A DNA stretch of 64,000 bases, taken from assembly GCF_016717175.1 (NCBI RefSeq), contig NZ_JADKFZ010000004.1; one strand, 5' to 3'. The notes under the pieces were generated by a model, which worked only from the letters and a program-made list of their open reading frames with translations, did no database searches and was not told the DNA's origin. Numbering within the stretch: the first letter of the stretch is position 1; each line of letters opens with the position of its first letter. This stretch comes from Nannocystis sp. (lineage in GTDB: Bacteria; Myxococcota_A; Polyangia; Nannocystales; Nannocystaceae). The translations under genes were made by a program, and so were the position numbers. Below, piece after piece: positions 2,088-60,958 of the stretch.

Positions 2088-3086
2088 TCACAGCTCGCGG
2101 AGGCCGCGGCGGCGCAGCAGCCACAGGAACAGCGGGGCGCCGAGCAGGCTGGTGAGCACGCCCGGCGGGAGGACGACGTTGGTGAAGGCGCGGGCGAGGG
2201 TGTCGACGAGGAGGACGAGCACGGCGCCGAGCAGGGCGGCGCGCGGCAGCAGGTGGCGGTGACCGGGGCCGCCCTGCATGCGCGCGAGGTGGGGGACCAG
2301 CAGGCCGACGAAGGCGATGACGCCGCTGATCGCCGTGGCGGCGCCGACCAGGAGGCCGACGGCGAGCACGGTGCGGCGGCGCAGGCGGACGAGGTCGACG
2401 CCGAGCGAGGCGGCGACGTCGTGGCCGAGGTGGAGGGTGTCGAGGTCGCGGCGCAGCCAGGCGGCGAGGGCGAGGCCGGCGGCGCAGGGCGGCAGGGCCC
2501 AGGCGAGGTGGATCCACGTGCGGCCCTCGAAGCTGCCGAGGCTCCACTGCATCACGCGCAGGCCGAGGTCCCAGCGCTGGGCGCCGAGGGCGAGGCAGAG
2601 GGTCGCGATCGCGGCGCAGAGGGTGCCGAGGGCGAAGCCGGAGAGCAGGAGGGTGGCGAGGCTGTGGTTGGCGCGGTGGAGGGCGAGGAGGATGACGAGG
2701 ACCAGGCCCGCGCCGGCGGCGGCGAGCAGCGGGGTGACCCACAGGCCGCTGGATTCGGCGCCGAGGAGGAAGCCGATGACGGCGGCGAGCATGGCCCCGG
2801 CGCTGACGCCGAGGACGCCGGGGTCGGCGAGCGGGTTGCGGAACAGGCCCTGGGTGAGGGCGCCGGCGCAGGCCAGGGCGGCGCCGACGAGCGCGGCGAG
2901 CAGGGCCCGGGGTAGGCGCAGCTGCCAGACGATCGCGTCGCGCAGCGGTGGGAGCGGGTCGCCGAGGCCGAGGTGGGCGAGCAGGCTGCGCAGGGCCTCG
3001 CCGAGGCCGACCTCGCCGGGACCTGTCCCGAGGGCCAGGAGCAGGGCGGCGGGGAGGAGCAGGGCGGTGAGGTGGCGCAGGCGCAT
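2088..3086 (-). CDS. btuC: ABC transporter permease, FecCD family (cobalamin/iron-siderophore type)
   Basis: 332 aa with multiple TM helices and FecCD/BtuC-like conserved blocks (GAALACAGALTQGLFRNPLADPGVLGVSAGA..., LVDTLAR...PPGVLTSLLGAPLFLWLL). It is the last gene of the riboswitch-controlled operon. The btuC name is inferred from the B12 riboswitch context. Confidence 0.8.
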   Translation of the reverse strand: MRLRHLTALLLPAALLLALGTGPGEVGLGEALRSLLAHLGLGDPLPPLRDAIVWQLRLPRALLAALVGAALACAGALTQGLFRNPLADPGVLGVSAGAMLAAVIGFLLGAESSGLWVTPLLAAAGAGLVLVILLALHRANHSLATLLLSGFALGTLCAAIATLCLALGAQRWDLGLRVMQWSLGSFEGRTWIHLAWALPPCAAGLALAAWLRRDLDTLHLGHDVAASLGVDLVRLRRRTVLAVGLLVGAATAISGVIAFVGLLVPHLARMQGGPGHRHLLPRAALLGAVLVLLVDTLARAFTNVVLPPGVLTSLLGAPLFLWLLRRRGLREL

Positions 3087-3120
<34 letters not shown>

Positions 3121-3139
3121 CGAGGCGGAGGTCAGCGGG

Positions 3140-4045
3140 TCAGCGGGCGAGGACGCGGGCCTGCAGGAGCTCGGCGCTGACGATCATACCCTCGCCGGTG
3201 CCGCCGAGGTCGCGGGCGGGGATGGCGATGATGCGGCCGTCGCGGGCGGCGCGGGTGGCCGCGATGCCGGGGCCGGCGGCGAAGCGGGCCTCGGCGGCGG
3301 GGCAGGCGGGGTCGTCGGCCTCGGCGGCGGGGCAGGCGATGACGATGACCTCGGGGTCCCAGGCGACGAGGCGCTCCATGGCCACAGGGACATGTCCCGA
3401 GAGACCTGCGCTTTCGGGCAGGTTGACGAGGCCCGCGGCGGCGGCGACGTCGGCGAAGGTCGTGGCGCCGGCGCTGGTGTGGCCGTCGCCCCAGGCGACC
3501 GCGGTGGGCGCGGGGTCGGGCCTGTGGGCGGCGAGGGCGGCGAGGCGGCGGTCGAGGTTGGCGATGCTGGCCTCGGCGGCGGGGCTGGCCTCGACGGCGG
3601 CGGCGAGCAGGCGGAGCTGACGGCGGTAGTCGGCGAAGCCGGTGAAGCTGTCGAGCTCGAGCAGGCGGACGCGGTGGGCGGTGAGGAGGGCCTTGATCTC
3701 GGGGGCGCTGAAGCTGGCGATGACGACGAGGTCGGGGTCGCGGGCGAGCAGGCCCTCGCTGGTGACGGCGAGGCGCGGGAGCTCGGGCGGCCACTGGCCG
3801 GCGACGCGGCTGTAGCGGGGGTCATCGGCCATGCTGCTGACGCCGACGACGCGGGCGCGGGCGGCCGGGCCGAGGCTCCACAGGATCTCGTCGCTCAGCA
3901 CGGTCTGCGAGACGACGCGGTGGGCCGGGCCGGTGCTGGGGGTCGGGGTCGGGGCGCAGGCGGCGAGCAGCAGCGCGGCGAGGAGCGGGGCGCGACGAGG
4001 CTGTCCTGAGGGACAGGTGATCTGGCCGGAGGGACAGGTGGTCAT
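3140..4045 (-). CDS. btuF: periplasmic substrate-binding lipoprotein of a cobalamin/siderophore ABC importer (PBP type 8, BtuF/FhuD-like)
   Basis: The C-terminal 300 aa of ORF 3140..5410 carry a lipoprotein signal (PLLAALLLAACAP) and BtuF-like blocks (VVGVSSMADDPRY..., PDLVVIASFSAPEIKALLTA..., RIIAIPARDLGG). ATG at 4043-4045. Confidence 0.75.
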   Translation of the reverse strand: MTTCPSGQITCPSGQPRRAPLLAALLLAACAPTPTPSTGPAHRVVSQTVLSDEILWSLGPAARARVVGVSSMADDPRYSRVAGQWPPELPRLAVTSEGLLARDPDLVVIASFSAPEIKALLTAHRVRLLELDSFTGFADYRRQLRLLAAAVEASPAAEASIANLDRRLAALAAHRPDPAPTAVAWGDGHTSAGATTFADVAAAAGLVNLPESAGLSGHVPVAMERLVAWDPEVIVIACPAAEADDPACPAAEARFAAGPGIAATRAARDGRIIAIPARDLGGTGEGMIVSAELLQARVLAR

Positions 4046-5281
4046 GGGAGCGGGGTGGCGGCGTAGGGGGCCAGGCCGGTGGCGGCGGCGGTGTGGGCGA
4101 GGCCGGGGGGGGCCGGCGAAGCGCGGGGTCGGCGGGTCGGCGCGCAGGTCCCACGCGCGCATGCCGGCGGCGGTGGGGGTGACGTCGCCGAACCATAGCG
4201 TGTCGCCGACGATCTCGAGGGTGGGGCCGACCGACTGGAGGCCGCGGGCGACCTCGACGATCGGCGCGTCGTCGTCGAGGCTGGCGCGCAGGAGCAGCAC
4301 CTGGGACAGGTCGGCGCTGTAGCTGGCGATGTAGGCGTGGCGGTGCTCGGCGTCGAGGTCGAAGGCCTGGGGCAGCTGGTAGTCGGCGAGGCCGATCGCG
4401 GCGAGTCGGGCGGGGTCGACGGCCCAGGTGGAGGTGCGCTGGGCCAGGTCGACGCGCTCGAGGCCGGTGGTGAGGATCAGGACGCTGTGGCCGGTGGGGT
4501 CGGCGGGGTCGGGGCGCCACTGCCGGGCCCACAGGCCGAGCAGGGGCATGGCTTGCACGCCGGGGCTCGCGGGATCGAGGTCGTGGAGGCGGCGGCTCGG
4601 GAGGTCGATCGGGGCGAGGTGGTCGCGGGTGTCGGTGGGCGCGAGCAGCTGGTTCTGGTCGAGGCGCTGGACGCTGACGAAGAGCGTGTCGCCGCAGCGG
4701 ATCGCCAGGTGGGCCTCGGGGTTGCCGTCGGCGTCGGCGAGCGGTGCGAGGTCGATGTGGCCGGCGAGGCTCGGGCGGGCGGGGTCGGCGATGTCGACGA
4801 TCTGCACGCGCGGGGCGCCGAACAGGGTGACGTGGGCGAGGTCGCCGACGACGGTGACCGCGTGCGGGTTGCTGCTCTGGACGCCGGGGACGGCGAGGCT
4901 CTGCTGGCCGAGCAGGGCGAGGCTGTCGGGCGCGAGCAGGTCGAGGGCGTCGAAGGTGTAGCGGTGGAGGACGATCAGGCGGCCGTCGCTGAAGACGGGG
5001 AGCGAGTCGGTGGTGGTGAGGGCGAGGTCCTTGTGGACCTCGCCGGTGGCGAGGTCGAGGATGCTGAGCGCGCCGGTGCTGAAGTCGGTGGTGGTGATGG
5101 CGAGGCGGGTCGGGTCGCTGAGCTCGCCGACGCAGGCCTCGTCGAGCTCGGGTGGGCCCGCGAGCGGGGGGGCGGCCCCGGTGTCGCCGGTGTCGCTGGC
5201 GGCGGAGCTGGCGTCGTCGTCGGGTGGGGCGCAGGCCAACACGAGGCTGGCCGCGAGGACAGGTGCGAGGGGGCGGCGCAT
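4046..5281 (-). CDS. surface/periplasmic lipoprotein, beta-propeller-like, paralog 1. C-terminus uncertain: it reads through into btuF with no stop.
   Basis: Signal peptide plus lipobox (MRRPLAPVLAASLVLACAPP). About 45% identical to the next gene: ALLGLWARQWRPDPADPTGHSVLILTTGLERVDLAQRTSTWAVDP versus ALLGPWPKQARLDPADPSGHTILVLTSGIERVDLAHGTSSWAVDP. The last ~30 codons are Pro/Arg-rich, which looks like out-of-frame sequence. Confidence 0.55.
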
Positions 5282-5283
5282 GG

Positions 5284-6567
5284 TCAGGGGATCGCGAGCA
5301 GGAGGTAGGGGTCGCCGGGGGTGGCGATCGGGTCGGTCTCGACCGGGGGATCCTCGCTGAGATCGAAGCTGCGCAGGCGAGGGGTGCCTGGGGCGGCGTC
5401 GCCGACCCACAGGAGCTCGCCGACGCGCTCGATCGCCTTGTCGCGGGCGGTGAGGCCGGGGATCAGCTTGTGCGCGCTCGGGGCTTGCTCGCCCAGGCGG
5501 ACGCGGAAGACGGCGGCGGCCGGGTAGTCGCCGTCGGTGGCGAGGAGGTCGATGCTGGTGGCGTCGGCGGCGACGCTGAAGCCGATCGGATCGAAGCCAT
5601 CGACGCCGGCGGCGGCGAGCACCGTGGGGTCGACCGCCCAGCTGGATGTCCCATGGGCCAGGTCGACGCGCTCGATGCCGGAGGTGAGGACGAGGATGGT
5701 GTGGCCGCTCGGGTCAGCGGGGTCGAGGCGGGCCTGCTTGGGCCAGGGGCCGAGGAGGGCGATCGCCTGCTCACCGGGGGTGCTCGGGTCGACGTCGATC
5801 GGCTCGCCGGTGCCGAGGTTCATGGCGACGAGGTAGCTGAGGTCGACGGGGTTGAAGTTGACGAGGCGCTGGACGCCGACGAACAGGGCCTCGCCGCAGG
5901 TGAAGGCGAGGCCGGGCTCGGGGCTGCCGTCGCGGTCGGCGAAGTCGATCAGGCTAAGGGCGTCGACCTTGGCCTCGGCGGCCGGGAGGTCGAGGTCGTA
6001 GACGGGGAGCTGCGCGCTGGCGAAGGCGGTGAGGTGGGCGCGGCCGTCGGGGCCGAAGGCGAGGGCCTGCGGGTTGGGGTCGGCGACGCCGTCGACGCTG
6101 ACCATGAGCGTGGGCTTGGCGGCCCAGGTGTCGCCGTCGAGGATGTCGAGGCTGTTGAAGCCGAAGCGGCCGATGATGACCAGCTTGCCGTCGCCCCACG
6201 CGAGCGCGGAGTCGGCGGGGGCGGGCGCGATGTCGGGGGTGAGCTTGTTGCTGGCGAGGTCGAGGACGTGGACGCTGGCGGGGTCCATGAGGTTGTTGGT
6301 GAGGATCGCCAGGCGGGTCGCGGTGGTCGGGCCGAGCGCGCAGGGGGCGTCGAGCTCGATGACGGGGGCCGGGTCGCCGGTGGTGGCGGTGTCGGTCGTG
6401 GCGTCGGTGCTCGTCGGTGCGGTGGTGGGCGCGCTGGTCTGGCTGGTTTCACCTGTGCTTTCGGACATGTCTGTTGTGCCAGCTTCGGCGCTGTCGCCGG
6501 TGCCGTGACCGGTGTTGGTGTGGCAGGCGGAGAGGAGGAGGAGGACGGGGAGGGTGGGGCGGAGCAT
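5284..6567 (-). CDS. surface/periplasmic lipoprotein, beta-propeller-like, paralog 2
   Basis: 427 aa with a lipoprotein signal (MLRPTLPVLLLLSACHT). After a Thr/Ser-rich linker come repeated ~45-aa blades consistent with a beta-propeller. The stop lies 3 nt before the paralog-1 start, so it is an operon member. Confidence 0.7.
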   Translation of the reverse strand: MLRPTLPVLLLLSACHTNTGHGTGDSAEAGTTDMSESTGETSQTSAPTTAPTSTDATTDTATTGDPAPVIELDAPCALGPTTATRLAILTNNLMDPASVHVLDLASNKLTPDIAPAPADSALAWGDGKLVIIGRFGFNSLDILDGDTWAAKPTLMVSVDGVADPNPQALAFGPDGRAHLTAFASAQLPVYDLDLPAAEAKVDALSLIDFADRDGSPEPGLAFTCGEALFVGVQRLVNFNPVDLSYLVAMNLGTGEPIDVDPSTPGEQAIALLGPWPKQARLDPADPSGHTILVLTSGIERVDLAHGTSSWAVDPTVLAAAGVDGFDPIGFSVAADATSIDLLATDGDYPAAAVFRVRLGEQAPSAHKLIPGLTARDKAIERVGELLWVGDAAPGTPRLRSFDLSEDPPVETDPIATPGDPYLLLAIP

Positions 6568-6570
6568 GGA

Positions 6571-8807
6571 TCAGGTCTCGTGGCGGGCCGGGGCGTCGAG
6601 CTCGACGCGGAGGGTGGTCCACAGGCTGGTGCCGGGGAGCGGGTAGAAGAAGAAGTCGGAGACGGGGACGGTGATCGCGGGGGCGCCGGCGATCGGCGGG
6701 CGCCAGGTGGTGGTGCGGAGGTTGAAGAGGTTGCGCACCTCGGCGGCGAGGTGGACGCGGCGGGCGAGGTGCAGCTCGACGGCGAGGCCGTGGAGGGCGC
6801 GGCTCGGGACCTCGTAGCGGCCGCTCGGGTCGAGGAAGGTGCGGGCTGCGTAGTCGAAGCTGTAGACCAGGCGCGGCTCGAGATCGGTGCGCCTGGCCTT
6901 GAAGACATGTCCGAAAGAACCTTGCGCGAACAGCTCGTGGCGCGGGCGACCGGGCAGGGGCTGGCCGCGCTGGGAGGGGTCGTCGCCGAGGTTGACGGGG
7001 GCGAGCAGGGTGTAGTTGGCGGACAGGCGGATGTCGCCGCGGAGCAGGCGGAGCGCGGCGCTGGTCTCGAAGCCGGAGACGCGGGCGCGGGCGACGTTCA
7101 CGGGGCGCAGGCTGGGACCGGCCTGCTGCCACTGGATCAGGCGGTCGCTCCACGTGACGAAGCCAGCGGCGTGGGCGTAGAGGGATGTGCGGGCGCGGGT
7201 GAGGTCGAGGATGAAGCCGCCGTCGAGGCTGCTGCCGCGCTCGGGTCGCAGGCCCTCGTTGCCGACGATGTAGCCGCGGTCGCCGAACAGCTCGAGCAGG
7301 CTCGGGGGACGGAAGTAGCGGCCGCCGGCGAGGCGGAGGGAGAGGCCGTGGACGAGGCCGAGGCGGGCGGCGAGGCGCGGGCTGGCGCCGAGCTCGAGGT
7401 GGTCGGCGCCCTGGTCGTTCTGCTCGCCGCTGCCGGCGGGGACGGCGAAGCGGCTGCGGAGGACGTCGAGGCGGACGATCGGCTGGAGGTGGAGACGATC
7501 GCCGGCGAGGTGTTGATCGAGCTGGAGGCCGAGGCCGAGGTTGACGCGCTGGCGGTTGCTGTCGCCCTGGGGCGGCGTGAGCAGGCGCTGGTCGACGCGG
7601 CTCCACTCCTGGCGGGCGTCGGCCATGGCGAGCAGCTGGGCGCCGCGCCACAGATCGAGGGTGAGGCGCGGCGAGAGGTAGAGGTCGAGGTTCCGGGTGC
7701 GCTGGTCGTCGATGCCGAGGCCGACCTCGCCGAGCGGGTCGCGGTAGCGGGTGCGCTCGACGGCGAAGCCGGCGACCAGGTCGATGTGGCCGGGGCGACC
7801 GCCGTCGTCGCCGAGCTCGCGGCGCACCCGGGCGACGCTGCGGGCGACCAGAGTGTCCAGCCTGGTGGCACGCGCCTGCTGGCCGGTGGCGAGGCCGGGG
7901 ATGCCCTGGTGCTTGTTGAGGAGCAGCTCCTGGACGCTGTAGCGCCACGCGCCGGCGCGGCCGTGGACGGCGAGCTGGGCGAGCAGGCGGTCGTAGTCGT
8001 TGTTCTGGCGCCGCTCGTTGCGGTCGTCGCGGGGGTCTTGCAGGGTCTCGCCGAGGTTGTGGAAGCGGAAGTCGCCGGTGGCGCCGGCGTGGCCGATGCG
8101 GAGGTCGAGGCAGGGGCCGCGGCGGCGCGGGGCGAGCGGGAGGGAGGTGCTGGCGCGGGCCTCGCTAGCGCCGAAGGAGCCGAGGCCGAGGACGGCGCCG
8201 AAGCGGCGGCGGGTCGGGTCGCAGCGCAGGTCGCTGCCTAGATCGAGGGCGCCGCCGATCGCCGCGCCGCCGTACGCGACCGGGACCAGGCCGCGGTGGA
8301 TCGTGACGCGGCCGAGGCTGTCGAGCGGGAGGTCGCCGAGGTTGACGACCCCGCCGCTGCCGCCGATCGGGACGCCGTCGAGGAAGACCGACACCTGCTG
8401 GGCTGAGGAGCCGCGCAGCGAGAGGGCGGAGAACTGGCCGAGGCCGCCGAGTGAGCGCACGGTGGCGCCGGCGCTGCGACCGAGCAGCTCGGGCAGGCCG
8501 TCGGCCGGGCGGGCGCCGGTGGGGTTGGCGAGCTCGATGCTGGTGGCGAAGCCGGGGCTGGCGGCGTCCTGCCGGCGCTGGGCGTCGAGGCCGTCGCCGC
8601 GGCCGTGGGCGACGACGGTGCGGTAGGGCGGGCTGGTCTTTGGGACAGGCTGGTCTTTGGGACAGCGGGGCTGGTCTTTGGGACAGCGGGGCTGGTCTTT
8701 GGGACAGGTGGCGCGAGGGCGCGGAGCTCGCGGGTGGTCAGCAGGGCGGCCGCGCAGGCGCACGCAGGCGCGAGGCGCACGCAGGCGACACGTATCGCGA
8801 GCCGCAC
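6571..8807 (-). CDS. btuB: TonB-dependent outer-membrane receptor (BtuB-like), reading frame interrupted inside an N-terminal tandem repeat
   Basis: The plug domain (DGVPIGGSGGVVNLGDLPLDSLGRVTIHRGLVPVAYGG) and barrel are in the frame of ORF 6571..8895. The signal peptide (MRLAIRVACVRLAPACACAAALL) and three VPKTSPA repeats are in the frame of ORF 8238..8807. The two frames meet inside the 21-nt repeat array, where one unit spacing is 17 nt. The gene is downstream of a cobalamin riboswitch. Confidence 0.8.
8633..8707. repeat. tandem array, 4 x CTGGTCTTTGGGACAG core (spacings 17, 21, 21 nt) inside the btuB 5' coding region
   Basis: Direct reading of the sequence: ggctggtctttgggacag / gctggtctttgggacagc / ggggctggtctttgggacagc / ggggctggtctttgggacag. 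It encodes VPKTSPA repeats and belongs to the dispersed CTGTCC/GGACAG motif family. Confidence 0.9.
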
Positions 8808-8949
8808 GTAGGCGACGCGAATGAAGCTGCGGCGCCCGTGGGCGCGCGAGGGCGTGGGGGTCGTGGGGACGATGGCGAGTGAACTCCCGTCTCACCGAGG
8901 TCGTCCGCGCCGGTGGGCGCAGGGACCTGCCGCCTTGTCAGGGCGGGGG

Positions 8950-9110
8950 AGCGCAGGGCAGGTCTCCTGGCTAAAGGGTCATCCTCGATCGACGCCTTCC
9001 CACGGTCCTGCGGGTGCAGGAGCTCGCAGTGGCTGCGTGTCGATCTCGTCGCCTCTCACAGTGGCGGGAGCCGCGTCGGTGTTGCACCGACTTCCCTCTT
9101 TCGCGTCCTG
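8950..9110 (-). ncRNA. cobalamin (AdoCbl) riboswitch in the btuB leader
   Basis: The minus-strand read gives ...aGGGAAgtcGGTGcAAcaCCgacgcggctCCCGCCACTGTgag...GGGAAGG...AGCCAGGAGACCTGCC. This matches the conserved cobalamin-riboswitch core (GGGAA..GGTG.AA..CC...CCCGCCACTG) and shows a perfect B12-box (AGCCAGGAGACCTGCC) at 8958-8973. It sits ~150 nt upstream of the btuB start. Confidence 0.85.
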
Positions 9111-9365
9111 GGCCCTGGGCCCGGGACGACCGTGCGCTCGAGTCTGTTTGTCAGGGAACGGCGCACTTGTCGCTCGCAAGCGCGCGCTTGTCAACGACGC
9201 ACGCGCGGACTTGCTGGGATTCTCACGCGCGCATGCGTACGGGGACGGAGAAACGTGCTGGCTGGCCCGTGGGAGCCGACATTAGTGGCATTTCGAGTGA
9301 GGATCGGACCCGGGTCGGACCTGTGGCGGGTTGCAATACCCACAAAACAAAAATAAGGTCAGTAG

Positions 9366-21030: not shown

Positions 21031-22963
<1,933 letters not shown>

Positions 22964-22967
<4 letters not shown>

Positions 22968-23886: not shown

Positions 23887-26800
23887 GTGCGTCTCGCCCG
23901 ACCGACGTCGCCTCGCCGGGCCCGGCCAACGCCGCGCTGGCTGTGGCTGTGCTCGGCGCTGTGGCTGCTGCTCTGCTGCCTGTCCCCGGGGACAGCCGCC
24001 GCCAACAGCCGCGACCTGAAGTGGAAGACGCTGACCACCGAGCACTTCCAGATCCACTACTACGCCGGCGCCGAGGCGGCCGCGGATCGGGCCGCGATGG
24101 TGCTCGAGCGGGCCCACGCGCGCCTCAGCGTCGGCCTCGGCCACAGCCCGAGGATCCGTACCCACGTCGTGATGACCGACGCCACCGACTCGGCCAACGG
24201 CCGGGCCACCGTGTTCAGCTTCCCGCGCATCGACGCCAACGTCACAGCCCCCGACTCGCTGTCCGTGCTCGAGAGCTACGACGACTGGCTCGACGCCCTG
24301 CTCAGCCACGAGTACACGCACATCGTCCACAACGACACGATCCACGGGCTGCCGCGGGTGCTCAACACGATCCTCGGCTTCGGCGTGATCGGCCGGGTCT
24401 GGCCGCCGAACGGCCTCCAGCCGCGCTGGGTGCTCGAGGGCCTGGCGACCTACGAGGAGTCGCGCCTGACCAGCCAGGGCCGCCACCGATCGACGCAGTT
24501 CGACATGATGCTGCGCATGGCCGTGCTCGAGCAGGGCTTCCCGACGCTCGACCGCATCTCCGCGCCGGCCACGATCTTCCCGCAGACGACCACCGTCTAC
24601 CTCTACGGCCTGCACTTGATCCACTACCTCGGCACCCGCTACGGCCACGACAAGCTGCGCGAGCTCAGCCACCGCTACGGCGGCCGGGCGATCCCCTACA
24701 GCCTGAACCGCACCGTGCAGGAGGTCTATGGCGTCGACTTCCAGCAGCTCTGGCAGGACTTCCAGCTCGACATCACCCGGCGCTTCGAGGCCCAGGCGCG
24801 GGCGATCCGCGGGCGAGGGATCCGCGAGGGTCGACGCCTCACCTTCTCCACCGCCAGCGAGGCCTCGAGCTTCAGCCGCCACCCGACCTGGTCGCCCGAC
24901 GATCAGTACCTCTACTTCTACGAGGACGACGGCCACAGCAACCCTGGCGTGCGCCGGATCGCCGCGCGCGGCGGACAGATCCGCGAGGGCATCGGCGTCG
25001 GTCGCCAGGGCATGACCCGCGGCATCGAGCGCGTCATCGAGGCCCAGGGTTCGTGCACGCCGAACCTCGTGCCGGGCTCCGGCGGCGACATCGTGTTCGA
25101 GCAGGGCAACCTGCACGACCTCCGCTACAGCTGGAACGAGCTGTTCCTGTGGCACCCCGCCGACCCCGACGCCCAGGCCGCCCGTCAGAGCCCGGGCGAG
25201 CTCATCCAGCTGACCTCCGGCCTGCGGGCGCGCGACCCCCACGTCAGCCCCGACGGCCGCAGCGTCGTGTTCATCCGCAACGACATCGCCCAGTCGCGGC
25301 TCGCCTTCCTCGATCTCCCGACCCGCGAGGTCCGCGAGCTGGCCCCGGCTGGCCGCGTCGAGCAGCTGTACAGCCCGCGCTTCTCGCCGGACAGCCGCAG
25401 GGTCGCCTTCTCGGCGCACCGCGACGGCTATCGCGACATCTACATCCACGATCGTGACACCGGCGCCCGCGAGCGGGTCACCGCCGACCGCTTCCTCGAC
25501 ATGTCGCCGACCTGGACCCCCGACGGCCGTTACCTGCTGTTCGCCAGCGACCGCGACGATGTCTTCAACATCTACGCCTATGACCTCGAGGCCGGCCGGG
25601 TGCAGCAGGTGACCAACGTGATCGGCGGCGCCTTCGACCCGGTGGTCAGCAACGACGGCCAGCGCCTGGCCTACGTCGGCTTCTCCTCCACCGGCTACGA
25701 CCTGTGGGTGATGAAGCTCGACCCGGCCGAGTTCTTCACGCCGCTGCCGATCTCCGAGGACCTGCCGCAGGCCGACGACCCGACCCCCGAGTTGCCGGCC
25801 CTGCACCGCCGGGCGCCCTCGCTGCGCGCCCGTCGCTACCAGCCGATCCGCACCTTCTTCCCGCGGGTCTTGCTGCCGGCCTCGTTCGACTTCGGCAACA
25901 GCGGTCAGGGCGTCGACCTCGGCCTCAAGCTCGACATCGCCGACGTCGTCGGCTTCCACAGCCTGAGCGCCAGCTTCCGCGACTACCTCCGCTACCGCGA
26001 GCCGGTCGGCGCCGTGAGCTACAGCTACAGCCAGCTGCTCCCGACCTTCAGCCTCGCCTTCGTCCGCGACCTGAGGGTCTACGACGACCGCGGTGTCCGC
26101 TACAACTACGACCACGCGTCGCGCGACGGCGTCTTCGAGCCCTACCTGCTCACCGGCTACCGCGAGCGCCAGACGGTGGTGCGCGCCTCGGTGTCGGTGC
26201 CGATCGTCCGCCACGCGATCCACAGCGCCAGCGCAGCCGCGACCTACGAGTTCTCGCGGCTGCGCGACCTCAACGAGGATCGCGAGGCGATCGACCCCAA
26301 CGCGCCGACCTCGGTGCCGCCCGCGGTCGGCGATGTCGGCAGCCTGAGCCTGTCGCTGCGCTACGACAACCTGCGCAGCGTCACCTACGGCTACGCCAGC
26401 GAGACCGGCCGCCACGCCGCGTTCAACCTGTCGATCGTCGACCGTCACCTCGGCGGCCAGTACGGCGACATCAAGGCGTCGGCGAGCTACGGCGAGCGGA
26501 TCCGCATGCCCTGGCGCGGTCATCAGGTGCTCGCGCTGCGCCTCGGCGGCGGCGCCTCGGCCGGCGGCCTCGGTCGCCTCGGGGCCTTCCGCCTCTATGG
26601 CACGCCGCTGCCGAACCGCGTGATCCAGGACTTCCTGCTGCGCAGCCCCTTCGCCGAGGCCGGCACGCTCCGCGGCTTCGTCCCCGCGGGCACCGCGGGC
26701 GCCTACTACCTCGTGCTCAACGTCGACTACCGGATCCCGCTCGCCGACGTCGAGCGCGGCATGGGCTCGCTGCCGCTGTTCATGCGCCGCGTCACCGCGA

Positions 26801-47011: not shown

Positions 47012-48757
47012 TCAGCTGCCCTCGAGGTGGGCGCGCTGGACGATGCGGGCGTCGAGGGTGAGGTAGCCGCGCGGCGGGCCGATCAGGCGCAGGGGGCTGA
47101 GTTCGACGCTGATCAGGCGGCCGGATGTCCCCGGGGACAGGTCGCGGTCGAAGTGCTGGACGAGGGCGTCGAGGCGCAGCAGCAGCGCGGCGAGCTCGGC
47201 GACGCCGGGGTCGCTGGCGCGGCGCAGGGCGGGCACGCGGGCGAGCACGGCGTGGGCGAGCAGGCGGGCGTCGGCGGGGGCGAGCGGGGCGAGGGCGAAG
47301 CAGGGCTCGGCCGGCGGCGACAGGCCGAGGGCGCGGCCGAAGATCGCCATCTCGCCGGTGTGCAGGCGGATCGCGCCGCAGTGCAGCTCGAGGCCCTCGG
47401 GGGCCTGCTCGGCGACCAGCACGCCGTCGAGGTGGGCGGTCGGCGCGTGGGTCTCGACGTTGTGGACGATCGTCGCGTAGGCGCGGCGGACCGCGGCGCT
47501 GGTGGTGAGGCCGAGGACCACCGCGCCGAGCTCCTGCTTGCGCCGCAGGTCGGGGCTGACGGCCTTGAGCACGACGGGGTAGCCGATCGTGTCGGCGTAC
47601 TGGGCCGCGCCGCTGGCCGAGCTGGCGACCGCCTGGCGCGTGATCTCGACGCCGAAGCCGCGGAGCACGACCTTGCTCTCGTGCTCCGAGAGCACCTGAC
47701 CGGCGCCGCGCAGGACCTCCTCGGCGCGGGCGATCGCGGCGGGGTCCTGCTGCGGGGCTGCGAGCTCGGGCGCGGCGGCCAGGAGGGCGCGGGTCTGCCG
47801 GCGCCGCAGCAGCGCGGCCTGGGCGAGGAAGGCGGCCGTCGGCGCGGCGAGGCCTGGGCCTGGCAGCGGCGCCTCCATGCCGACGGCGGCGCCGAGGGTC
47901 GGCAGGGCGCGGCGGGCCTGGGCCCAGCGGGCGAGCAGGCCCGGATCGTGGCTGTCCTCGGGGACAGGTGCAGGCGGCGCACACAGCAGGGCCAGCAGCT
48001 GCGGGCTCGGGAACAGCGGGCCGGTGAAGCGCTCGAGCGCGTGGGCGGCGACGGCGGCGGCGAGGCTGGGGTCGCGGGGGAGGTCGAGGCGGGCCGGCGG
48101 GAGCCCGAGCGGGACGATCGCGTGCTCGGCCGCGTCGCCGGCCGCGCGGGCCCAGCGGGCCCAGCCCGGGTGCAGGCTGGCCGCGGCGACGAAGCCGAGC
48201 GCGCGGGTGCCCGCGAGCTGCGGGTCGGCGAGCCACAGCGGCCACCACGGCGGGGTCGGGCAGGCGGCCAGGCGCACGCCCGCGGGCAAGGCTGGCGCTT
48301 GGGACAGGTGATCTGTCCGCGGGGACAGGTCGGTGGAGGCTGGCGCTTGGGACAGGTGGCTGGACAGGTCGGAGGCGGAGGCGAGGGCGGCGAGCAGGGC
48401 GGCGAGCTCTGCGGGGGCTGTGGCGCAGGCGACGGTGTCGCCGGTGGGGCCGATCTGCAGGCGGGCGTCGGGGCCGAGGAGCAGGGTGTCGGGGAGGGCG
48501 GGGAGCGAGCCGGGCTCGGCGGGGCCGGTGACGACCAGGAGGGCAGGGGGGCGCTCGCGGAGGGCGCGGAGCAGGGCGGGGCCGAGGCTGTGGACGACGA
48601 CGACGAGGGCGCCGTGGTCGCGCACGCGGCGGGCGAGCTCCGCGTCGCGCAGCAGCTCGCCGGGCAGGCGCACGTGCGGGGCGGCGGCCTCGGCGATGAG
48701 CGTCGCCGTCGCGGCGGGCGCGAGCAGGGCCTGGAGCGCTGTCGCCGGCGGCGTCAC
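47012..48757 (-). CDS. acetate--CoA ligase (ADP-forming) family protein (CoA-binding flavodoxin-like N-domain + ATP-grasp)
   Basis: C-terminal ATP-grasp_5-like region GYPVVLKAVSPDLRRKQELGAVVLGL. An internal linker (DLSSHLSQAPASTDLSPRTDHLSQAPA) is encoded by tandem copies of the GGGACAGG repeat. Confidence 0.65.
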   Translation of the reverse strand: MTPPATALQALLAPAATATLIAEAAAPHVRLPGELLRDAELARRVRDHGALVVVVHSLGPALLRALRERPPALLVVTGPAEPGSLPALPDTLLLGPDARLQIGPTGDTVACATAPAELAALLAALASASDLSSHLSQAPASTDLSPRTDHLSQAPALPAGVRLAACPTPPWWPLWLADPQLAGTRALGFVAAASLHPGWARWARAAGDAAEHAIVPLGLPPARLDLPRDPSLAAAVAAHALERFTGPLFPSPQLLALLCAPPAPVPEDSHDPGLLARWAQARRALPTLGAAVGMEAPLPGPGLAAPTAAFLAQAALLRRRQTRALLAAAPELAAPQQDPAAIARAEEVLRGAGQVLSEHESKVVLRGFGVEITRQAVASSASGAAQYADTIGYPVVLKAVSPDLRRKQELGAVVLGLTTSAAVRRAYATIVHNVETHAPTAHLDGVLVAEQAPEGLELHCGAIRLHTGEMAIFGRALGLSPPAEPCFALAPLAPADARLLAHAVLARVPALRRASDPGVAELAALLLRLDALVQHFDRDLSPGTSGRLISVELSPLRLIGPPRGYLTLDARIVQRAHLEGS

Positions 48758-54510: not shown

Positions 54511-56973
54511 CTACTCGCCGGCCAGCTCCGAGGCGATCGCCGCGGCCACGCGGGCGACCCGCGCGGCGGCCTCGGCGGCCTCACGTGCCGCTTCAGCCGT
54601 TGCCTCCGCGGCCTCGGCCTCGCGCGCCAGATCTTCGGCCGCGGCCGCCGTCTCGCGGGCGATTCGCTCGGCCCGGTGGCGCTCGGCCGCGACGCGCAGC
54701 TCGCCCGCCTCCGGCCCGCGCAGCAGCAGGCAAGTCAGCGGGGGCAGGGTGATGCGCAGCGAGAAGGGCCGATCGTGGGCTGGCTCGGGCTCGGCCTCGA
54801 AGCTGTCTGCCAGCGACACGATCGCCGTCTGTTCATCGCCGCTGTAGGCCGCCGCGTCGCTGCGATCGATCAGGGTCCAGCGCCCCTCGGCGGGCACGCC
54901 GATGCGCTGCTCCGTCCACGTCACCGGGGTGAAGTTCAGGGCCACGAGCATCACCGGTCCGCGGCTCGGCAGGCGCATGTACACCGCCAGGCTGCGCTGG
55001 CGATCGTCGACCACCATCCACTCGAAGCCCGCGGGATCGTGGTCGAGCTCGTGCAGCGCCGGGTCGGCGCGGTAGAGCTGGGCCACGCGACGCAGCCAGC
55101 GCAGCGCGCCCGCGTGCGCCGGCGATCGGAGCAGCTCCCAGTCGAGCTCGCGCTCGTGGCTCCACTCGCGCACCTGGCCGAACTCGCCGCCCATGAACAG
55201 CAGCTTGCGGCCCGGCGTGCTGAACATGTACCCGAGCAGCAGGCGCAGGCCGGCGAACTTCGCGGGCGTGTCCCCGTACATCTTGCGGATCAGCGAGCCC
55301 TTGCCGTGCACGACCTCGTCGTGCGACAGCGGCAGCATGTAGCGCTCGTTGTACGCGTACCACATGCGAAAGGTCAGCTCGTTGTGGTGCTGCGCGCGCG
55401 TGACGGGGTCGCGGCCGAGGTAGCGCAGGCTGTCGTGCATCCAGCCCATGTCCCACTTGAGATCGAAGCCGAGGCCGCCGCGCTCGACCGGGCCGGTGAC
55501 CAGCGGCCACGCCGTCGACTCCTCCGCGATCGTGATCACGCCCGGGTGGCGCGCGTGGATCGTCTGGTTCAGCGCCCGCAGGAAGGCGACCGCCTCGAGG
55601 TTCTCGCGCCCGCCGTGCGCGTTCGGCTGCCACTGGCCGGGCTGACGCGAGTAGTCGAGGTAGAGCATCGAGGCCACCGCGTCGACCCGGATCGCGTCGA
55701 CGTGATAGCGCTCGATCCACATGGACGCGGAGCTGAGCAGGAAGGCCCGCACCTCGTGGCGCCCGTGGTTGAAGATCAGCGTGTTCCAGTCCGGGTGCAC
55801 GCCGCGGCTCGGGTCGCGGTGCTCGTAGAGATAGGTGCCGTCGAAGCGGTGCAGCCCGTGCGCGTCGCCCGGGAAGTGGCCCGGCACCCAGTCGAGGATC
55901 ACCCCGATCTCGGCGCGGTGCAGCTCGTCGATCAGGTACATCAGCGCCTGCGGCCCGCCGTAGCGGGCGCTCGGGGCGAAGTAGCCGCTGGTCTGGTAGC
56001 CCCACGATCCGTAGAAGGGGTGCTCGGTGAGCGGCATGAACTCGACGTGGGTGAAGCCCAGCGCCCGCACGTGCGCGACCAGCTTCGCCGCGATCTCGCG
56101 GTAGCCGAGCCACGCGCCCTCGGGCCCGCGCAGCCACGAGCCGAGGTGCAGCTCGTAGACCGAGATCGGCGCGTGTCGACCTTGCCGCGCGGCCCGCTCG
56201 CGCAGCCACGCGTCGTCGCGCCAGGCGTACTCGAGGTCGGCGATCCGCGAGGCCGTGTGCGGCGGCAGCTCCGTGGCCAGCGCGCAGGGGTCGGCCTTGT
56301 CGAGCACCTCGCCGCGCATCCCGATCACACGGTACTTGTAGAGCATCCCGACCGCCGCCTCGGCGACGCGCCCGATCCACAGCCCGCCGCCGCCGCGCGC
56401 GAGCGGGTGGCGGAAGGGGTCCCAGTCGTTCCACTCGCCGATCACGCTGACGTGGCGCGCGTTCGGGGCCCACACCGCGAACTGCACGCCGCCCTCGGCG
56501 AGCAGCTGCGCGCCGAGCTTTTCATACAACCGCAGGTGCGTGCCCTCGGCGAGGTAGTGCAGGTCGTCGGCGCTGATGCTGGGGTCTTGGGTCGGCCGCG
56601 CGAGGTAAAGCCGCGGATCTGCGGGCGCCTCGGGCACCTCGGGCACCTCGGGTACCTCGTCGGGCAGATACAAGATGGCGTCCGCGCTGGCCGCGAGCAC
56701 CTCGGCGGGGCTGTCCTTCGGGACAGGTACATCGTCGCCGAGGTACACGATCGCCTCGGTCTGCACGGCCACCTCATCGCCCGAGACGTCGACTGTCACC
56801 GCGGCCTCGGCCTCGGCCTCGGCCTGCTCCGGCCTGGCCTTCGGGACAGGTGCATCGTCGGGCAGGTACAGGATCGAGTCGGCGTTGCTGGCCAGCACCG
56901 CCGCTGCCCTGGGCTTCGCCCGCGCCGTGCCCTGCTTCGTCTCCCTCGATGGTTGCCGCGGACGCTTGCTCAT
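54511..56973 (-). CDS. glgB: 1,4-alpha-glucan branching enzyme with ~130-aa repeat-containing N-terminal extension and a coiled C-terminal tail
   Basis: GH13 GlgB core (VYELHLGSW..., GFTHVEFMP, DAVASMLYLDY). The N-terminal extension carries 3 x ILYLPD(D/E)xPVPK repeats. Confidence 0.9.
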   Translation of the reverse strand: MSKRPRQPSRETKQGTARAKPRAAAVLASNADSILYLPDDAPVPKARPEQAEAEAEAAVTVDVSGDEVAVQTEAIVYLGDDVPVPKDSPAEVLAASADAILYLPDEVPEVPEVPEAPADPRLYLARPTQDPSISADDLHYLAEGTHLRLYEKLGAQLLAEGGVQFAVWAPNARHVSVIGEWNDWDPFRHPLARGGGGLWIGRVAEAAVGMLYKYRVIGMRGEVLDKADPCALATELPPHTASRIADLEYAWRDDAWLRERAARQGRHAPISVYELHLGSWLRGPEGAWLGYREIAAKLVAHVRALGFTHVEFMPLTEHPFYGSWGYQTSGYFAPSARYGGPQALMYLIDELHRAEIGVILDWVPGHFPGDAHGLHRFDGTYLYEHRDPSRGVHPDWNTLIFNHGRHEVRAFLLSSASMWIERYHVDAIRVDAVASMLYLDYSRQPGQWQPNAHGGRENLEAVAFLRALNQTIHARHPGVITIAEESTAWPLVTGPVERGGLGFDLKWDMGWMHDSLRYLGRDPVTRAQHHNELTFRMWYAYNERYMLPLSHDEVVHGKGSLIRKMYGDTPAKFAGLRLLLGYMFSTPGRKLLFMGGEFGQVREWSHERELDWELLRSPAHAGALRWLRRVAQLYRADPALHELDHDPAGFEWMVVDDRQRSLAVYMRLPSRGPVMLVALNFTPVTWTEQRIGVPAEGRWTLIDRSDAAAYSGDEQTAIVSLADSFEAEPEPAHDRPFSLRITLPPLTCLLLRGPEAGELRVAAERHRAERIARETAAAAEDLAREAEAAEATAEAAREAAEAAARVARVAAAIASELAGE

Positions 56974-59328: not shown

Positions 59329-60958
59329 ATGAACGCCTCGCCCTCCCCCGCGCGCCGGATCGTCGGCGTCACCGTGCCGCTGTTCTCGCTGCGCAGCGCC
59401 AGCTCGTGGGGCATCGGCGAGATCGGCGACCTGCCGGCGCTCGCCCGCCTGCTCGCGCCCGCCGGCGTCGGCCTGATCCAGCTGCTCCCGATCAACGAGA
59501 TCGCCGGCGGCAACAGCTCGCCCTACGGCGCCCTCTCGGCCTTCGGCATCGACCCGATGTACATCAGCCTCACCGCCGTCGACGACCTGCGCGCGCTCGC
59601 CAACGTCGAGGCGCTCGGCCACGACGGCGCGCGCCGCCTCGACGCCCTGCGCGCCGCCCCCGGCGTCGACTACGAGGCCGTCCGCGAGCTCAAGCGCCAC
59701 GCCCTGATCGCCGGCCTCAAGCGCTTTCATCACCACGAGCTGCGGGCCCACACCCCGACCCCGCGGGCCCGCAGCTTCCACGCCTTCGTCGCCGCCCACC
59801 AGGGCTGGCTCGACGACTACGCCCTCTACCGCGCGATCAAGGACGACCAGCACGGCAAGCCGTGGTGGGAGTGGCCGGCCCCGCTGCGCGAGCGCGAGGC
59901 CGCGGCGCTGCGCCAGGAGGAGGCCCGCCTCGGCGACGCGGTCCTCTACTTCAAGTACGTCCAGTGGCTCGCGCACAGCCAGTGGGCCGACGCCCGCGCC
60001 GCGCTGCGCCACCAGGGCGTCGAGATCATGGGCGACCTCCCCTTCATGGTCGACCGCGACTCCGCCGACGTCTGGGCCGAGCGCCGCGAGTTTCGCCTCG
60101 ACATGTCGGTCGGCTGCCCCGCCGATCAGTTCGACGAGGACGGCCAGGACTGGGGCCTGCCGCCCTACTACTGGGGCGTCATGGCCGGCAACGACTTCGC
60201 CTGGCTGCGCCGCCGCGCCCGCTACAGCGGCGAGCTCTACGACCGCTTCCGCGTCGACCACCTGGTCGGCTTCTTCCGCACCGCGATGCGCCCCTACGAC
60301 GCCCGCCGCGACGCCAAGGGCAAGCTGGTCCCCGCCCGCTTCGACCCGCCCGACGAGCACAGCCAGCGCCTCCACGGCGAGCGCGTGGTCGGGGCCATGA
60401 TCGCCGCGGCCGCGGAGACCGGCGCCCGCCTGGTCGCCGAGGACCTCGGCTCCGTCCCCGGGTACGTCGGCCCCGCGCTCGCCAAGCTCGGCGCCCCCGG
60501 CTACCGCGTGCTCATCTGGGAGAAGGACGGCGAGGTCTTCCGCGACCCCGCCAGCTACCCCGCCCGCAGCGTCGCCTGCTTCGGCACCCACGACACCGCC
60601 CCGGTCGCCGCGTGGTGGACCCACCTCTCGGAGCCCGAGCGCGCCGCGGCGCTCCAGCTACCTGTCCTTCGCGACATGTCCCCGGCGCCAGGCAAGCGCT
60701 TCAGCGTCGACCTGCACGCCGCGCTCTTGCGCCTGATCTGTGGCGCCGGCTCCGAGCTGGTGCTGCTGCTCCTGCAGGACCTGCTCGGCACCCGCGACCG
60801 CATCAACGTCCCCGGCACCGTCAAGCCCGAGCAACTGGACCTACCGCCTGCCCAAGCCGATCGAGGCGATGGCCAGCGACCGCAGCGTCCGCGCCGCCCT
60901 GACCCGCCTCGGCGCCGCCATCGACGCCACCCACCGCGACCGCCCGCGCCCACACTAG
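59329..60958 (+). CDS. malQ: 4-alpha-glucanotransferase (amylomaltase, GH77), with a frameshift near 60828
   Basis: GVTVPLFSLRS...WGIGEIGDL and PGYRVLIWE. The authentic C-terminus (NWTYRLPKPIEAMASDRSVRAALTRLGAAIDAT...) is in the +1 frame (ORF 60740..60958), which indicates a 1-nt indel after ...NVPGTVKPE. Confidence 0.8.

Follow-up and report, generated by a model that had tools for sequence, protein, structure and literature searches.

The window, a 64-kb stretch of DNA from a Nannocystis sp. MAG, carries a gene for a TonB-dependent receptor on the minus strand, directly downstream of a cobalamin riboswitch. All features of this locus lie on that strand. The riboswitch aptamer (RF00174; 8940..9149) matched its model over the full length (1-189) with 98.4 bits, against a gathering score of 31.5 (E 2.4e-23). 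The receptor gene opens a B12-type uptake operon. The downstream genes span 2088..6567 and encode a 427-aa protein of unknown function (5284-6567), a second such protein of ~410 aa (about 4060-5281), a BtuF-like Peripla_BP_2 lipoprotein (3140-4045; Peripla_BP_2 5.9e-15) and a FecCD permease (2088-3086; FecCD 3.7e-83), in the same order as at the related loci L003 and L167. The mature part of the receptor (6571..8646; stop codon 6571-6573) comprises the last unit of a repeat linker, the TonB box YRTVVAHG (8602..8625), a plug and a 22-strand-type barrel. Across 20 orthologs, V66 and V67 of the TonB box are invariant, and R64 and T65 nearly so.

The name btuB, given to the gene in an earlier note made from the DNA alone, is a functional label, drawn from the riboswitch and the operon context. 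A cobalamin riboswitch in the 5′ leader and BtuF/BtuC-like neighbours mark the product as a putative riboswitch-controlled corrinoid receptor. By contrast, the protein scored far below the thresholds of both curated BtuB equivalog models, with 71.3 bits against a cut-off of 599.7 for TIGR01779 (TonB-B12) and 51 bits against 836 for NF007926. The locus shares with the Escherichia coli BtuB/BtuFCD system the upstream cobalamin riboswitch (RF00174), a Shine–Dalgarno (SD) sequence able to pair with the 3′ end of the aptamer, the TonB box, plug and barrel, and linkage to Peripla_BP_2 and FecCD genes. It differs in that the receptor is not a BtuB equivalog, carries a repeat linker ahead of its TonB box and has a putative AUC start, and in that two unknown genes separate the receptor from btuF.

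The receptor reading frame is broken inside the repeat linker. In frame A lie the N-terminal region and signal peptide (8708..8870), which end in ...RLAPACACAAALLTTRELRA followed by LAPP. We assigned the signal peptide from hydrophobic segments and the ortholog alignment; signal peptides are homologous across the orthologs. The linker, of VPKTSPx units, joins the signal peptide to the TonB box and is encoded by a four-core tandem array (8631..8707) with units of 21, 21, 17 and 21 nt. Tandem Repeats Finder reported it as 8630-8707 with a period of 21, 3.9 copies and a score of 128. The 17-nt core TGTCCCAAAGACCAGCC occurs in four exact copies (0.07 expected by chance), with minus-strand starts at 8706, 8685, 8664 and 8647. 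These are spaced 21, 21 and 17 nt apart in minus-strand order, in agreement with the spacings originally measured. The 17-nt unit (8648..8664) abuts the next core, CCAGCC running directly into TGTCCC, and units 3 and 4 form a perfect 2 × 17-nt tandem (8631-8664). At this junction, frame A gives way to frame B.

The frame A ORF 8238-8807 reads MRLAIRVACVRLAPACACAAALLTTRELRALAPP-VPKTSPA-VPKTSPA-VPKTS, and past the short unit continues as nonsense to a stop codon at 8238..8240, 211 codons from an ATC at 8873. Frame B, the −1 frame of A (ORF 6571-8895), reads VPKTSPP-YRTVVAHG and continues through plug and barrel. A GC3 phase plot shifts phase at about 8650-8680, which is the expected pattern for a real change of coding frame. 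The ORFs, the core spacing and the GC3 plot thus bear out the exact position at which the earlier note had placed the break, within a 21-nt tandem repeat, and the two frames correspond to its division of the gene into a signal peptide with three VPKTSP units on one side and plug and barrel on the other. Insertion of 4 nt after the 17-nt unit yielded a single 746-aa ORF, whose product matched Pfam Plug (PF07715, 3.6e-12) and TonB_dep_Rec_b-barrel (PF00593, 2.5e-29). Separately, the DNA encoding the signal peptide contains an in-frame, imperfect 27-nt tandem duplication (8753..8818; VRLAIRVAC / VRLAPACAC; period 27, 2.5 copies, 78% matches in Tandem Repeats Finder), which is missing from the related loci L167 and L004.

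Upstream of the signal peptide lies a box, GGTGAGACGGGAG (8884..8896), that is conserved across Nannocystaceae loci and includes the SD sequence GGGAG (8884-8888). The minimum-free-energy fold joins GGGAG to a CUCCC at the aptamer's 3′ end. Among relatives, in-frame starts at +8 to +12 are ATG at 5 loci, TTG at 8 and GTG at 1. A further 16 loci have no canonical start in the tabulated range of +3 to +17, and all of these have an in-frame ATC at +9 or +10; two others, L008 and L036, combine an ATC at +10 with an in-frame TTG at +13. These loci include all the tabulated Nannocystis loci except the mis-anchored L011. From this comparison of relatives, AUC appears to be a conserved start codon of the gene family, which in the window would be the frame A ATC at 8871..8873, 10 nt after GGGAG. 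Alternative GTG starts in frame A lie at 8807 and 8780. A conserved AUC start behind a cobalamin riboswitch, at no fewer than 16 loci, would, if real, offer a natural test case for near-cognate initiation controlled by a riboswitch.

The deposited gene model takes a different course. From GTG 8763 onward, the window receptor is identical to the NCBI MAG protein MBK9754245.1 (915-kb contig), a 730-aa model in frame B. Frame B runs uninterrupted from 8895 to 6571 and the 730-aa form is the one annotated by NCBI, so the gene might be read as unbroken, with 730 aa from 8763 or 774 aa from 8895. We give this reading an essentially negligible probability. The frame B N-terminus (MRREFTRHRPHDPH...RGRPADHPRAPRPRATCPKDQPRCPKDQP) has no hydrophobic segment, and an outer-membrane receptor that began in this way could not be exported. 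GC3 favours frame A upstream of about 8660, and in the orthologs a single frame covers the signal peptide, PVPKxS and YRTVV. We also considered GTG 8895 as the true start of an 'intact' 774-aa ORF and rejected it: it lies within the conserved SD box, does not share the receptor's frame in most relatives and leads into no signal peptide. For practical purposes, the ortholog comparison already refutes the deposited model, which starts in the wrong frame. Several gene calls of relatives (in the Logan, ENA and JGI collections, and the NCBI N. exedens model) are N-terminally truncated. The frameshift itself is of little consequence, one more indel-broken gene in a MAG; its lesson is one of annotation, and the by-products of the analysis may outweigh the main finding.

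Comparison with orthologous N-termini, which had been suggested as a check, found all orthologs in a single frame. The intact allele nearest to that of the window belongs to a sister MAG (P0121); across 684 residues, counted from the TonB box, the two proteins share 99.3% identity. The sister N-terminus begins MRLAPACACAAALL in the NCBI model and, as in all orthologs, its signal peptide shares a frame with the mature protein, whereas the present assembly has the two in frames A and B. The sister linker reads VPKTSPA-VPKTSPA-VPKTSPTQP-VPKTSPP (...VPKTSPAVPKTSPAVPKTSPTQPVPKTSPPYRTVV). In other assemblies (Logan, NCBI), L004 and L169 are in frame with core spacings of 21 and 27 nt, and L167 and L168 are in frame with a core spacing of 27 nt. 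In the 90% cluster, five of the six alleles are in frame and the window allele is the only broken one. Arrays of close strains contain 2, 3 or 4 cores, and their intact units measure 21 or 27 nt.

The 27-nt units contain two CCAGCC repeats 10 nt apart. In the close alleles the DNA reads GA[CCAGCC]CCGT[CCAGCC]TGTCCC, and removal of one 10-nt period gives exactly the junction found in the window. Taken together, the protein of P0121 and the DNA of L004, L167 and L169 suggest, as the best explanation of the lesion, that 10 nt were deleted between the two directly repeated CCAGCC copies in a unit of 27 nt. At the DNA level, we infer that the sister junction (MBK7826625.1) would read CCAGCC[CCACCCAGCC]TGTCCC. 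The earlier note's repair, addition of 4 nt, is right in its arithmetic, as an insertion of +1 modulo 3 restores the 746-aa receptor, but in the intact alleles this place is occupied by a 27-nt unit and not by a fourth one of 21 nt. The 4-nt loss that this repair implies is contradicted by the sister allele, which reads ...VPKTSPTQPVPKTSPP..., and by the 27-nt units of close Illumina-assembled alleles. A scan of genome contigs gave a best match of 81% identity; the window's own MAG and the sister were not among the matches.

Most likely, the break is an error of the sequencing consensus or an isolated null allele, and not an evolved ON/OFF switch. The earlier note had offered an assembly error or slipped-strand variation, which is the right pair of alternatives, although collapse or slippage by whole units would remove 21 or 27 nt and keep the frame. 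Between the two, we give a modest preference to an indel error in the consensus, at a C-rich local direct repeat, of a MAG presumably built from long (Nanopore) reads. The third unit has 17 nt in place of the 27 nt of the closest intact allele, probably through omission of 10 nt between the CCAGCC repeats, and everything from the TonB box onward stands in the −1 frame. In the sequence as written, ribosomes that translate the signal peptide terminate at 8238, and the barrel frame has no export signal; if the break is a consensus error, the true gene would be intact and read like the sister allele. The window contains two more indel frameshifts in conserved genes, one of them of homopolymer type, and these point to consensus errors. 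A C8 homopolymer (G8 on the plus strand) at 4105..4112 shifts the C-terminus of the ~410-aa gene of the operon and fuses it to btuF. Orthologs of this gene end in ...GLAPYAA(T/V)P(L/M)P*, an end that the window reaches only via a frame change at C8. In malQ, repair of a frameshift near 60820 raised the Glyco_hydro_77 score from 388 to 402 bits and moved the profile end from 451 to 460. Indels at homopolymers are the error that classically remains in Nanopore consensus sequences.

The present MAG probably comes from a Nanopore-based project, to which we presumptively assign it by its accession series. That project, on MAGs from Danish activated sludge, assembled Nanopore reads with CANU, polished the result with Racon, medaka and Illumina-based Racon, and includes g__Nannocystis MAGs (PMC8012365). 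Across the 2.1 kb of the receptor, we found no other lesion that would signal decay. The broken copy also gave no sign of relaxed selection in outgroup distances or dN/dS: the window and sister receptors are equidistant from the outgroups (661/684 and 647/684 for both), and the receptor dN/dS is 0.22-0.25. On balance, we infer an artefact in preference to a real mutation.

Several observations speak against a consensus error. A 10-nt deletion is atypical of Nanopore reads, in which errors are typically 1-2 nt. Direct repeats of 6 nt flank the missing stretch, within a demonstrably unstable array, and a real deletion by replication slippage would occur at just such a place; natural core-to-core 17-nt junctions exist in a JGI metagenome contig (L065), which contains three perfect 17-nt copies. 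Moreover, the ~50 genes of the window are intact apart from the three lesions, so the assembly is not grossly error-ridden. A tentative alternative, to which we give clearly less weight, is that a recent slippage deletion between the CCAGCC repeats, or a duplication of the 17-nt core, produced an unselected null allele, either a young pseudogene or a loss-of-function variant segregating in the strain or population. Besides the flanking 6-nt repeats and the L065 junctions, the hypervariability of the array among close strains (2, 3 or 4 cores) favours such an event, and the absence of further decay would fit one that is very recent. Against it, the lesion is present in one allele out of six and is reproduced by no independent assembly, the other two indel frameshifts point to consensus errors, and the remainder of the uptake operon is maintained. 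Were the deletion real, a predator living in wastewater would have lost, perhaps reversibly, one of its corrinoid receptors.

A programmed switch or −1 frameshifting is, even taken jointly, unlikely at best. The earlier note had raised an ON/OFF switch of the receptor. As a contingency locus, the 2 × 17-nt tandem (8631-8664) would gain and lose copies by slipped-strand mispairing; 17 is not a multiple of 3, and loss of one copy from the present allele (−4 − 17 = −21) would give an in-frame three-unit allele of the kind found in nature. Tandem arrays of the 17-nt core exist (L065), and the array sits just past the signal peptide, like the CCAA tracts of the Haemophilus influenzae hgp genes, which are located right after the signal peptide. 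We nevertheless consider such a locus quite improbable. The sole unit whose length is not a multiple of 3 is present twice, compared with 4-39 CCAA units in known tracts (PMC2651432). All other alleles have 21- or 27-nt in-frame units and would be ON; no second OFF allele was found among the six alleles and the orthologs, every more distant ortholog being in frame, and neither an ecological rationale nor a precedent for such a switch is known in myxobacteria. The likeness to H. influenzae hgpA/B/C (CCAA) and Neisseria meningitidis hmbR/hpuAB (poly-G) is that of a TonB-dependent receptor with a frame-setting repeat in its 5′ coding region (PMC2651432, PMC3352162). Those tracts, however, are extended runs with a unit of 1 or 4 nt, and many strains have them out of frame, whereas the window array has 2-4 imperfect copies of 21- or 27-nt units, its length varies among alleles, and only one allele in six is out of frame. 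Ribosomes might instead compensate for the break by −1 frameshifting at C_CCA_AAG, some of them slipping so that a complete receptor, its linker changed a little, would still be made and exported. E. coli copA is an example of programmed −1 frameshifting on this heptamer. The window has the same X_XXY_YYZ site in the zero frame of each of the first three units of frame A, and the productive downstream ORF lies exactly in the −1 frame. The heptamer has been described as highly shift-prone in E. coli (PMC5009743). Its proline codon, CCA, is unusual for a genome of 72% GC. Unlike the copA type, the window has no correctly spaced downstream stimulator: the fold of 8560-8660 gave z = +0.51, and the sole strong hairpin lies ~36 nt beyond the last usable heptamer. 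Neither the site nor the need to shift is conserved, as L001 has CCCGAAG and L003 has CCAAAAG, and the orthologs are single-frame. High-GC bacteria normally have tRNA-Lys(CUU), which disfavours slippage on A_AAG. We rejected programmed frameshifting, a highly improbable reading, because stimulator and conservation are both missing. The two ideas can be combined: the 17-nt junction would be real and a revertible switch, loss of a copy from the 2 × 17-nt tandem would turn the receptor ON, the three C_CCA_AAG sites would allow a trickle of exported receptor, and a dispersed 16-17-nt hairpin motif, found at cistron 5′ ends in this Nannocystis lineage, would be a source of frame-changing length variation in surface-protein genes. 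This, too, we hold to be unlikely.

The repeat core is not specific to btuB. It belongs to a dispersed family of ~16-nt imperfect palindromes, CTGTCC-N4-(G/C)(G/A)(A/C)CAG, with 22 matches at 17 sites in the 64 kb, against 0.13 expected. Copies are intergenic, tandem or inside coding regions in all three frames, and one inverted pair lies at about 2020-2081. Intergenic copies include those at 2066 and in L053, L063, L065 and L165; many others lie inside coding 5′ regions, and many copies fall within the first ~260 nt of cistrons. A hairpin motif that is dispersed, clusters at the 5′ ends of cistrons and is translated in three frames is apparently undescribed; a limited literature search found no published REP-like elements in Nannocystis or other myxobacteria. 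REP elements are characterized by GTAG and RAYT, and Rickettsia palindromic elements are 100-150 nt long. The window motif resembles REP/BIME and REPIN elements in that many dispersed copies of a short imperfect palindrome occur, but it has no conserved GTAG and is not strictly extragenic. Rickettsia palindromic elements lie in frame inside genes, and some copies of the window motif are likewise within coding regions, although the motif is much shorter. Canonical copies fold into a hairpin with a 6-bp stem (−8.2 kcal/mol; z −2.6 to −4.4), whereas the btuB variant (GACCAG) folds poorly, at −1 kcal/mol. A metagenome scan with the 16-mer GTCCCAAAGACCAGCC recovered no further btuB allele and gave mostly single matches, by our estimate about as many as chance would produce in a large collection. 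The same scan revealed the dispersed family in other high-GC contigs, a handful of which carry multi-copy arrays.

The receptor gene is split between two reading frames inside a tandem repeat. A full-length cobalamin riboswitch aptamer lies at 8940–9149 on the minus strand (Rfam; 98.4 bits, E 2.4e-23) and is followed downstream by a period-21 array at 8630–8707 (Tandem Repeats Finder; 3.9 copies, score 128). The array holds four exact copies of a 17-nt core, TGTCCCAAAGACCAGCC, with minus-strand starts at 8706, 8685, 8664 and 8647 (0.07 chance matches expected) and hence spacings of 21, 21 and 17 nt; units 3 and 4 together make a perfect 2 × 17-nt tandem at 8631–8664. Frame A (ORF 8238–8807) encodes a signal-peptide-like N-terminus, ...RLAPACACAAALLTTRELRALAPP, followed by VPKTSPA, VPKTSPA and VPKTS, after which it is nonsense until the stop at 8238. 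Frame B (ORF 6571–8895), −1 relative to frame A, encodes VPKTSPP, the TonB box YRTVVAHG, the plug and the barrel. GC3 periodicity switches phase at about 8650–8680, so each frame is truly coding on its own side of the break. The split described in the earlier note, with signal peptide and repeats in one frame and plug and barrel in the other, was thus borne out in every detail. Adding 4 nt after the short unit yields a protein of 746 aa in which Pfam recognises Plug and TonB_dep_Rec_b-barrel domains.

The same operon encodes a Peripla_BP_2 binding protein and a FecCD permease. Riboswitch control and this operon context agree with the name btuB used before, but the receptor scores 71 bits against a cut-off of 599.7 in the BtuB equivalog models. 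We accordingly assign it to the TonB-dependent receptors of the B12 regulon without calling it BtuB proper; its predicted function is that of a BtuB-like, riboswitch-controlled corrinoid receptor.

Comparison of orthologous N-termini, a check named in the earlier note, placed the signal peptide, PVPK units and YRTVV of intact alleles in one frame. The sister MAG protein P0121 (MBK7826625.1, 739 aa) belongs to the same 90% cluster, shares 99.3% identity with the window across the 684 residues that begin at the TonB box, and reads MRLAPACACAAALLTTRELRALAPP-VPKTSPA-VPKTSPA-VPKTSPTQP-VPKTSPP-YRTVVAHG... in a single frame. Other members of this cluster likewise read through, with VPKTARP-VPKTSPVQP-VPKTSPAP in L004 and L169 (spacings 21 and 27) and VPKTSSAQP-VPKTSPAP in L167 and L168 (spacing 27). 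Distant orthologs (loci L001, L002, L003, L006 and L022; proteins P0005–P0036) carry one to several PVPK[A/T]S units, in frame from signal peptide to YRTVV. Judged from these sequences, the array is a strain-variable in-frame linker of two to four units of 21 or 27 nt. The window is the single out-of-frame case among the six cluster alleles with N-terminal information and all orthologs. Natural 27-nt units read GA[CCAGCC]CCGT[CCAGCC]TGTCCC, and if one 10-nt period is lost between the CCAGCC repeats, exactly the window junction CCAGCC|TGTCCC results. Because of this match, the lesion is best read as the loss of 10 nt from a 27-nt unit, an event inferred from the sister's protein and the DNA of L004, L167 and L169. 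The 4-nt restoration proposed previously works arithmetically (10 ≡ 4 ≡ 1 mod 3), but natural alleles do not match it.

The frameshift also affects the deposited gene model. From GTG 8763 on, the frame-B ORF agrees at 730/730 residues with NCBI MBK9754245.1 ('MAG: TonB-dependent receptor [Nannocystis sp.]'), which accordingly starts in the wrong frame and without a signal peptide. This 730-aa model (6571–8763, minus) is an annotation artefact that the frameshift produced in GC-rich, stop-poor sequence. The signal-peptide coding region contains an imperfect in-frame 27-nt tandem duplication (8753–8818, minus; VRLAIRVAC/VRLAPACAC); it is not present in the close alleles L167 and L004, and creates GTG codons at 8807 and 8780 that gene callers can use.

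Upstream, the box GGTGAGACGGGAG (8884–8896) is kept across Nannocystaceae, with a GTG that in most loci is not in the receptor frame. The GGGAG within this box can base-pair with CUCCC at the aptamer 3′ end, as expected for an expression platform that sequesters the Shine–Dalgarno sequence. In frame with the receptor, 8–12 nt past GGGAG, stands ATG in 5 loci, TTG in 8 and GTG in 1, and these relatives belong to other genera. In 16 loci (L001–L006, L014, L022, L023, L027, L031, L035, L037, L043, L167 and L169), including all tabulated Nannocystis loci except the mis-anchored L011, the codon 9–10 nt past GGGAG is ATC and the tabulated window contains no canonical start codon. L008 and L036 have ATC at +10 and then an in-frame TTG at +13. 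The window's own ATC is at 8873–8871 (minus), in frame A. From this conservation, the receptor family appears to start at an AUC codon. Loci L001, L002, L004, L006, L167 and L169 have no ATG, GTG or TTG in frame upstream of the TonB box. For lack of a canonical in-frame start, the gene calls of L001, L002 and L004/L169 (P0003, P0004 and P0123/P0125) begin at VRSLGG, and those of P0012, P0014 and P0033 after the TonB box. Public gene calls of several Nannocystis receptor alleles are thus N-terminally truncated.

We lean slightly towards a consensus error (indel) as the origin of the lesion. A whole-window GC3-based frame HMM with inspection of gene ends revealed two further indel frameshifts in conserved genes. 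At a C8 run (4105–4112; G8 on the plus strand), a ~410-aa gene of the receptor operon, upstream of btuF, loses its C-terminal frame and fuses to btuF; its orthologs end ...GLAPYAA(T/V)P(L/M)P-stop, an end the window has only in another frame. A miscounted homopolymer in the consensus is the probable cause. In malQ (4-alpha-glucanotransferase, from 59290, plus strand), the frame changes at about 60815–60830 (near 60820), just before the conserved NW motif, and the true C-terminus, NWTYRLPKPIEAM...RPH-stop, is encoded in frame +1. With the frame mended, the Glyco_hydro_77 match reaches profile position 460 instead of 451, and its Pfam score climbs by 14 bits, from 388 to 402. Three lesions in ~50 genes, one a homopolymer miscount, is the look of a partly polished Nanopore consensus. 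The 915,480-bp MAG contig that carries MBK9754245.1 suggests a long-read assembly, and its accession series probably belongs to the Danish activated-sludge MAG project. That project lists g__Nannocystis MAGs and used Nanopore reads, CANU assembly, and Racon, medaka and Illumina Racon polishing (PMC8012365). Over 2.1 kb the broken receptor carries no further lesion; it differs from the sister at only 5/684 residues, and both alleles are equidistant from outgroups (661/684 and 647/684; dN/dS 0.22–0.25). With no sign of decay, the lesion is either of very recent origin or an artefact. A genuine, unselected null allele is the less likely but serious possibility, favoured by the 10-nt size of the deletion, the direct repeats that bound it and the demonstrably unstable array. 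The sequence feature itself is real; the biology beneath it is most likely absent, given a consensus indel, or trivial, given a young null allele.

Repeat collapse and slipped-strand variation, suggested previously as causes, fail where they act by whole units, because steps of 21 or 27 nt keep the frame. The ON/OFF switch raised in the earlier note finds no support either, the window being the sole out-of-frame allele. Evolved phase variation of receptor expression at the array is very improbable: loss of one copy from the perfect 17-nt tandem would restore the frame (−4 − 17 = −21), and the same core occurs in natural 17-nt tandem arrays on a JGI contig (L065), but there are only two 17-nt copies, no second OFF allele was found among cluster alleles and orthologs, and changes of 21/27-nt units leave the frame as it is. 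Known phase-variable TonB-dependent receptors, such as HmbR and HpuAB (PMC3352162) and the H. influenzae hgp genes with 4–39 CCAA units (PMC2651432), carry long tracts of 1- or 4-nt units, whereas the window array has few copies of 21/27-nt units; the receptor locus shows neither the many copies of a unit indivisible by three nor the alleles toggling between frames that mark an SSR contingency locus. Programmed FRAMESHIFTING (−1) at C_CCA_AAG is very improbable too, and would be at most adventitious leakiness. This heptamer, described as highly shift-prone in E. coli (PMC5009743), stands in frame A in each of the first three units with the barrel in the −1 frame, and a slip at any one of the three would give an exported receptor. 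Yet no stimulatory structure lies at a useful distance (fold of 8560–8660, z = +0.51), the sole strong hairpin begins ~36 nt past the last usable heptamer, the heptamer varies (CCCGAAG in L001, CCAAAAG in L003) and no ortholog needs the shift; despite the in-phase heptamers, the locus does not qualify as a programmed −1 site. A combination of a revertible 17-nt switch with leaky −1 frameshifting is also improbable.

The repeat core is not specific to the receptor. A relaxed CTGTCC-N4-SRMCAG pattern has 22 matches (17 sites) in the window against 0.13 expected, and CCTGTCCC alone has 15 against 3.3. The dispersed motif is an imperfect palindrome of ~16 nt, (c)ACCTGTCC-N4-GG(A/C)CAGCC, mostly on the sense strand. 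Canonical copies have a perfect 6-bp palindrome and a free 4-nt loop (CTGTCC-CTCA/CCGG/CGAA/CCGC-GGACAG) and fold at −8.2 kcal/mol (z −2.6 to −4.4); the receptor-array variant (GACCAG) folds weakly, at −1 kcal/mol. Copies cluster just after start codons or within the first ~260 nt of cistrons, and in intercistronic DNA. Besides the receptor linker array (8631–8707, minus), they occur, mostly on the minus strand, at 2066–2081 (intercistronic, with an inverted partner near 2020), in the 5′ regions of the permease gene (3023–3038) and of the gene preceding btuF (5247–5262), in btuF at 4001–4037 (copies 4001/4022), read as MTTCPSGQITCPSGQP before the lipoprotein signal, in cistron 5′ regions at 23980–23995 and 56711–56849 (copies 56711/56834), and mid-gene at 47952–47967 and 48292–48355 (copies 48292–48340). 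The motif is translated in all three frames (PVPK, TCPxGQ and LSQAPA). At the btuF start the stems are kept between strains but the loop varies, so that the residue it encodes is S, P or W; this points to constraint at the nucleotide level.

Tandem core arrays also lie between genes in high-GC metagenome contigs (L053, L063, L065, L117 and L165; spacings 17, 36 and 38 nt). This motif family explains the repeat-prone linker, and the 17-nt core-to-core junction as a natural configuration. The motif resembles REP-like elements, but is shorter and often intragenic; a limited search of the Nannocystis literature found no description of it. Core copies further occur at gene 3′ ends, in L095 and at the MutM C-terminus in L091 and L157. 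There the core supplies the final stretch of the MutM/Fpg C-terminal zinc finger, translated as ...FCPKDQPRPRTRLL-stop (L091 1917–1934, L157 5540–5557), and motif insertion may have remodelled this C-terminus.

Two very long homopolymers were also noted. G34 at 3087–3120, which is C34 in the coding sense, immediately precedes the permease ATG (3086); G40+C+G10 occupies 22872–22922, at the 3′ end of a gene ending at 22967. Apart from these, such tracts turned up only in L165 and L125, at contig ends or close to them; they are artefacts, or else genuine tracts on which short-read assemblies break.
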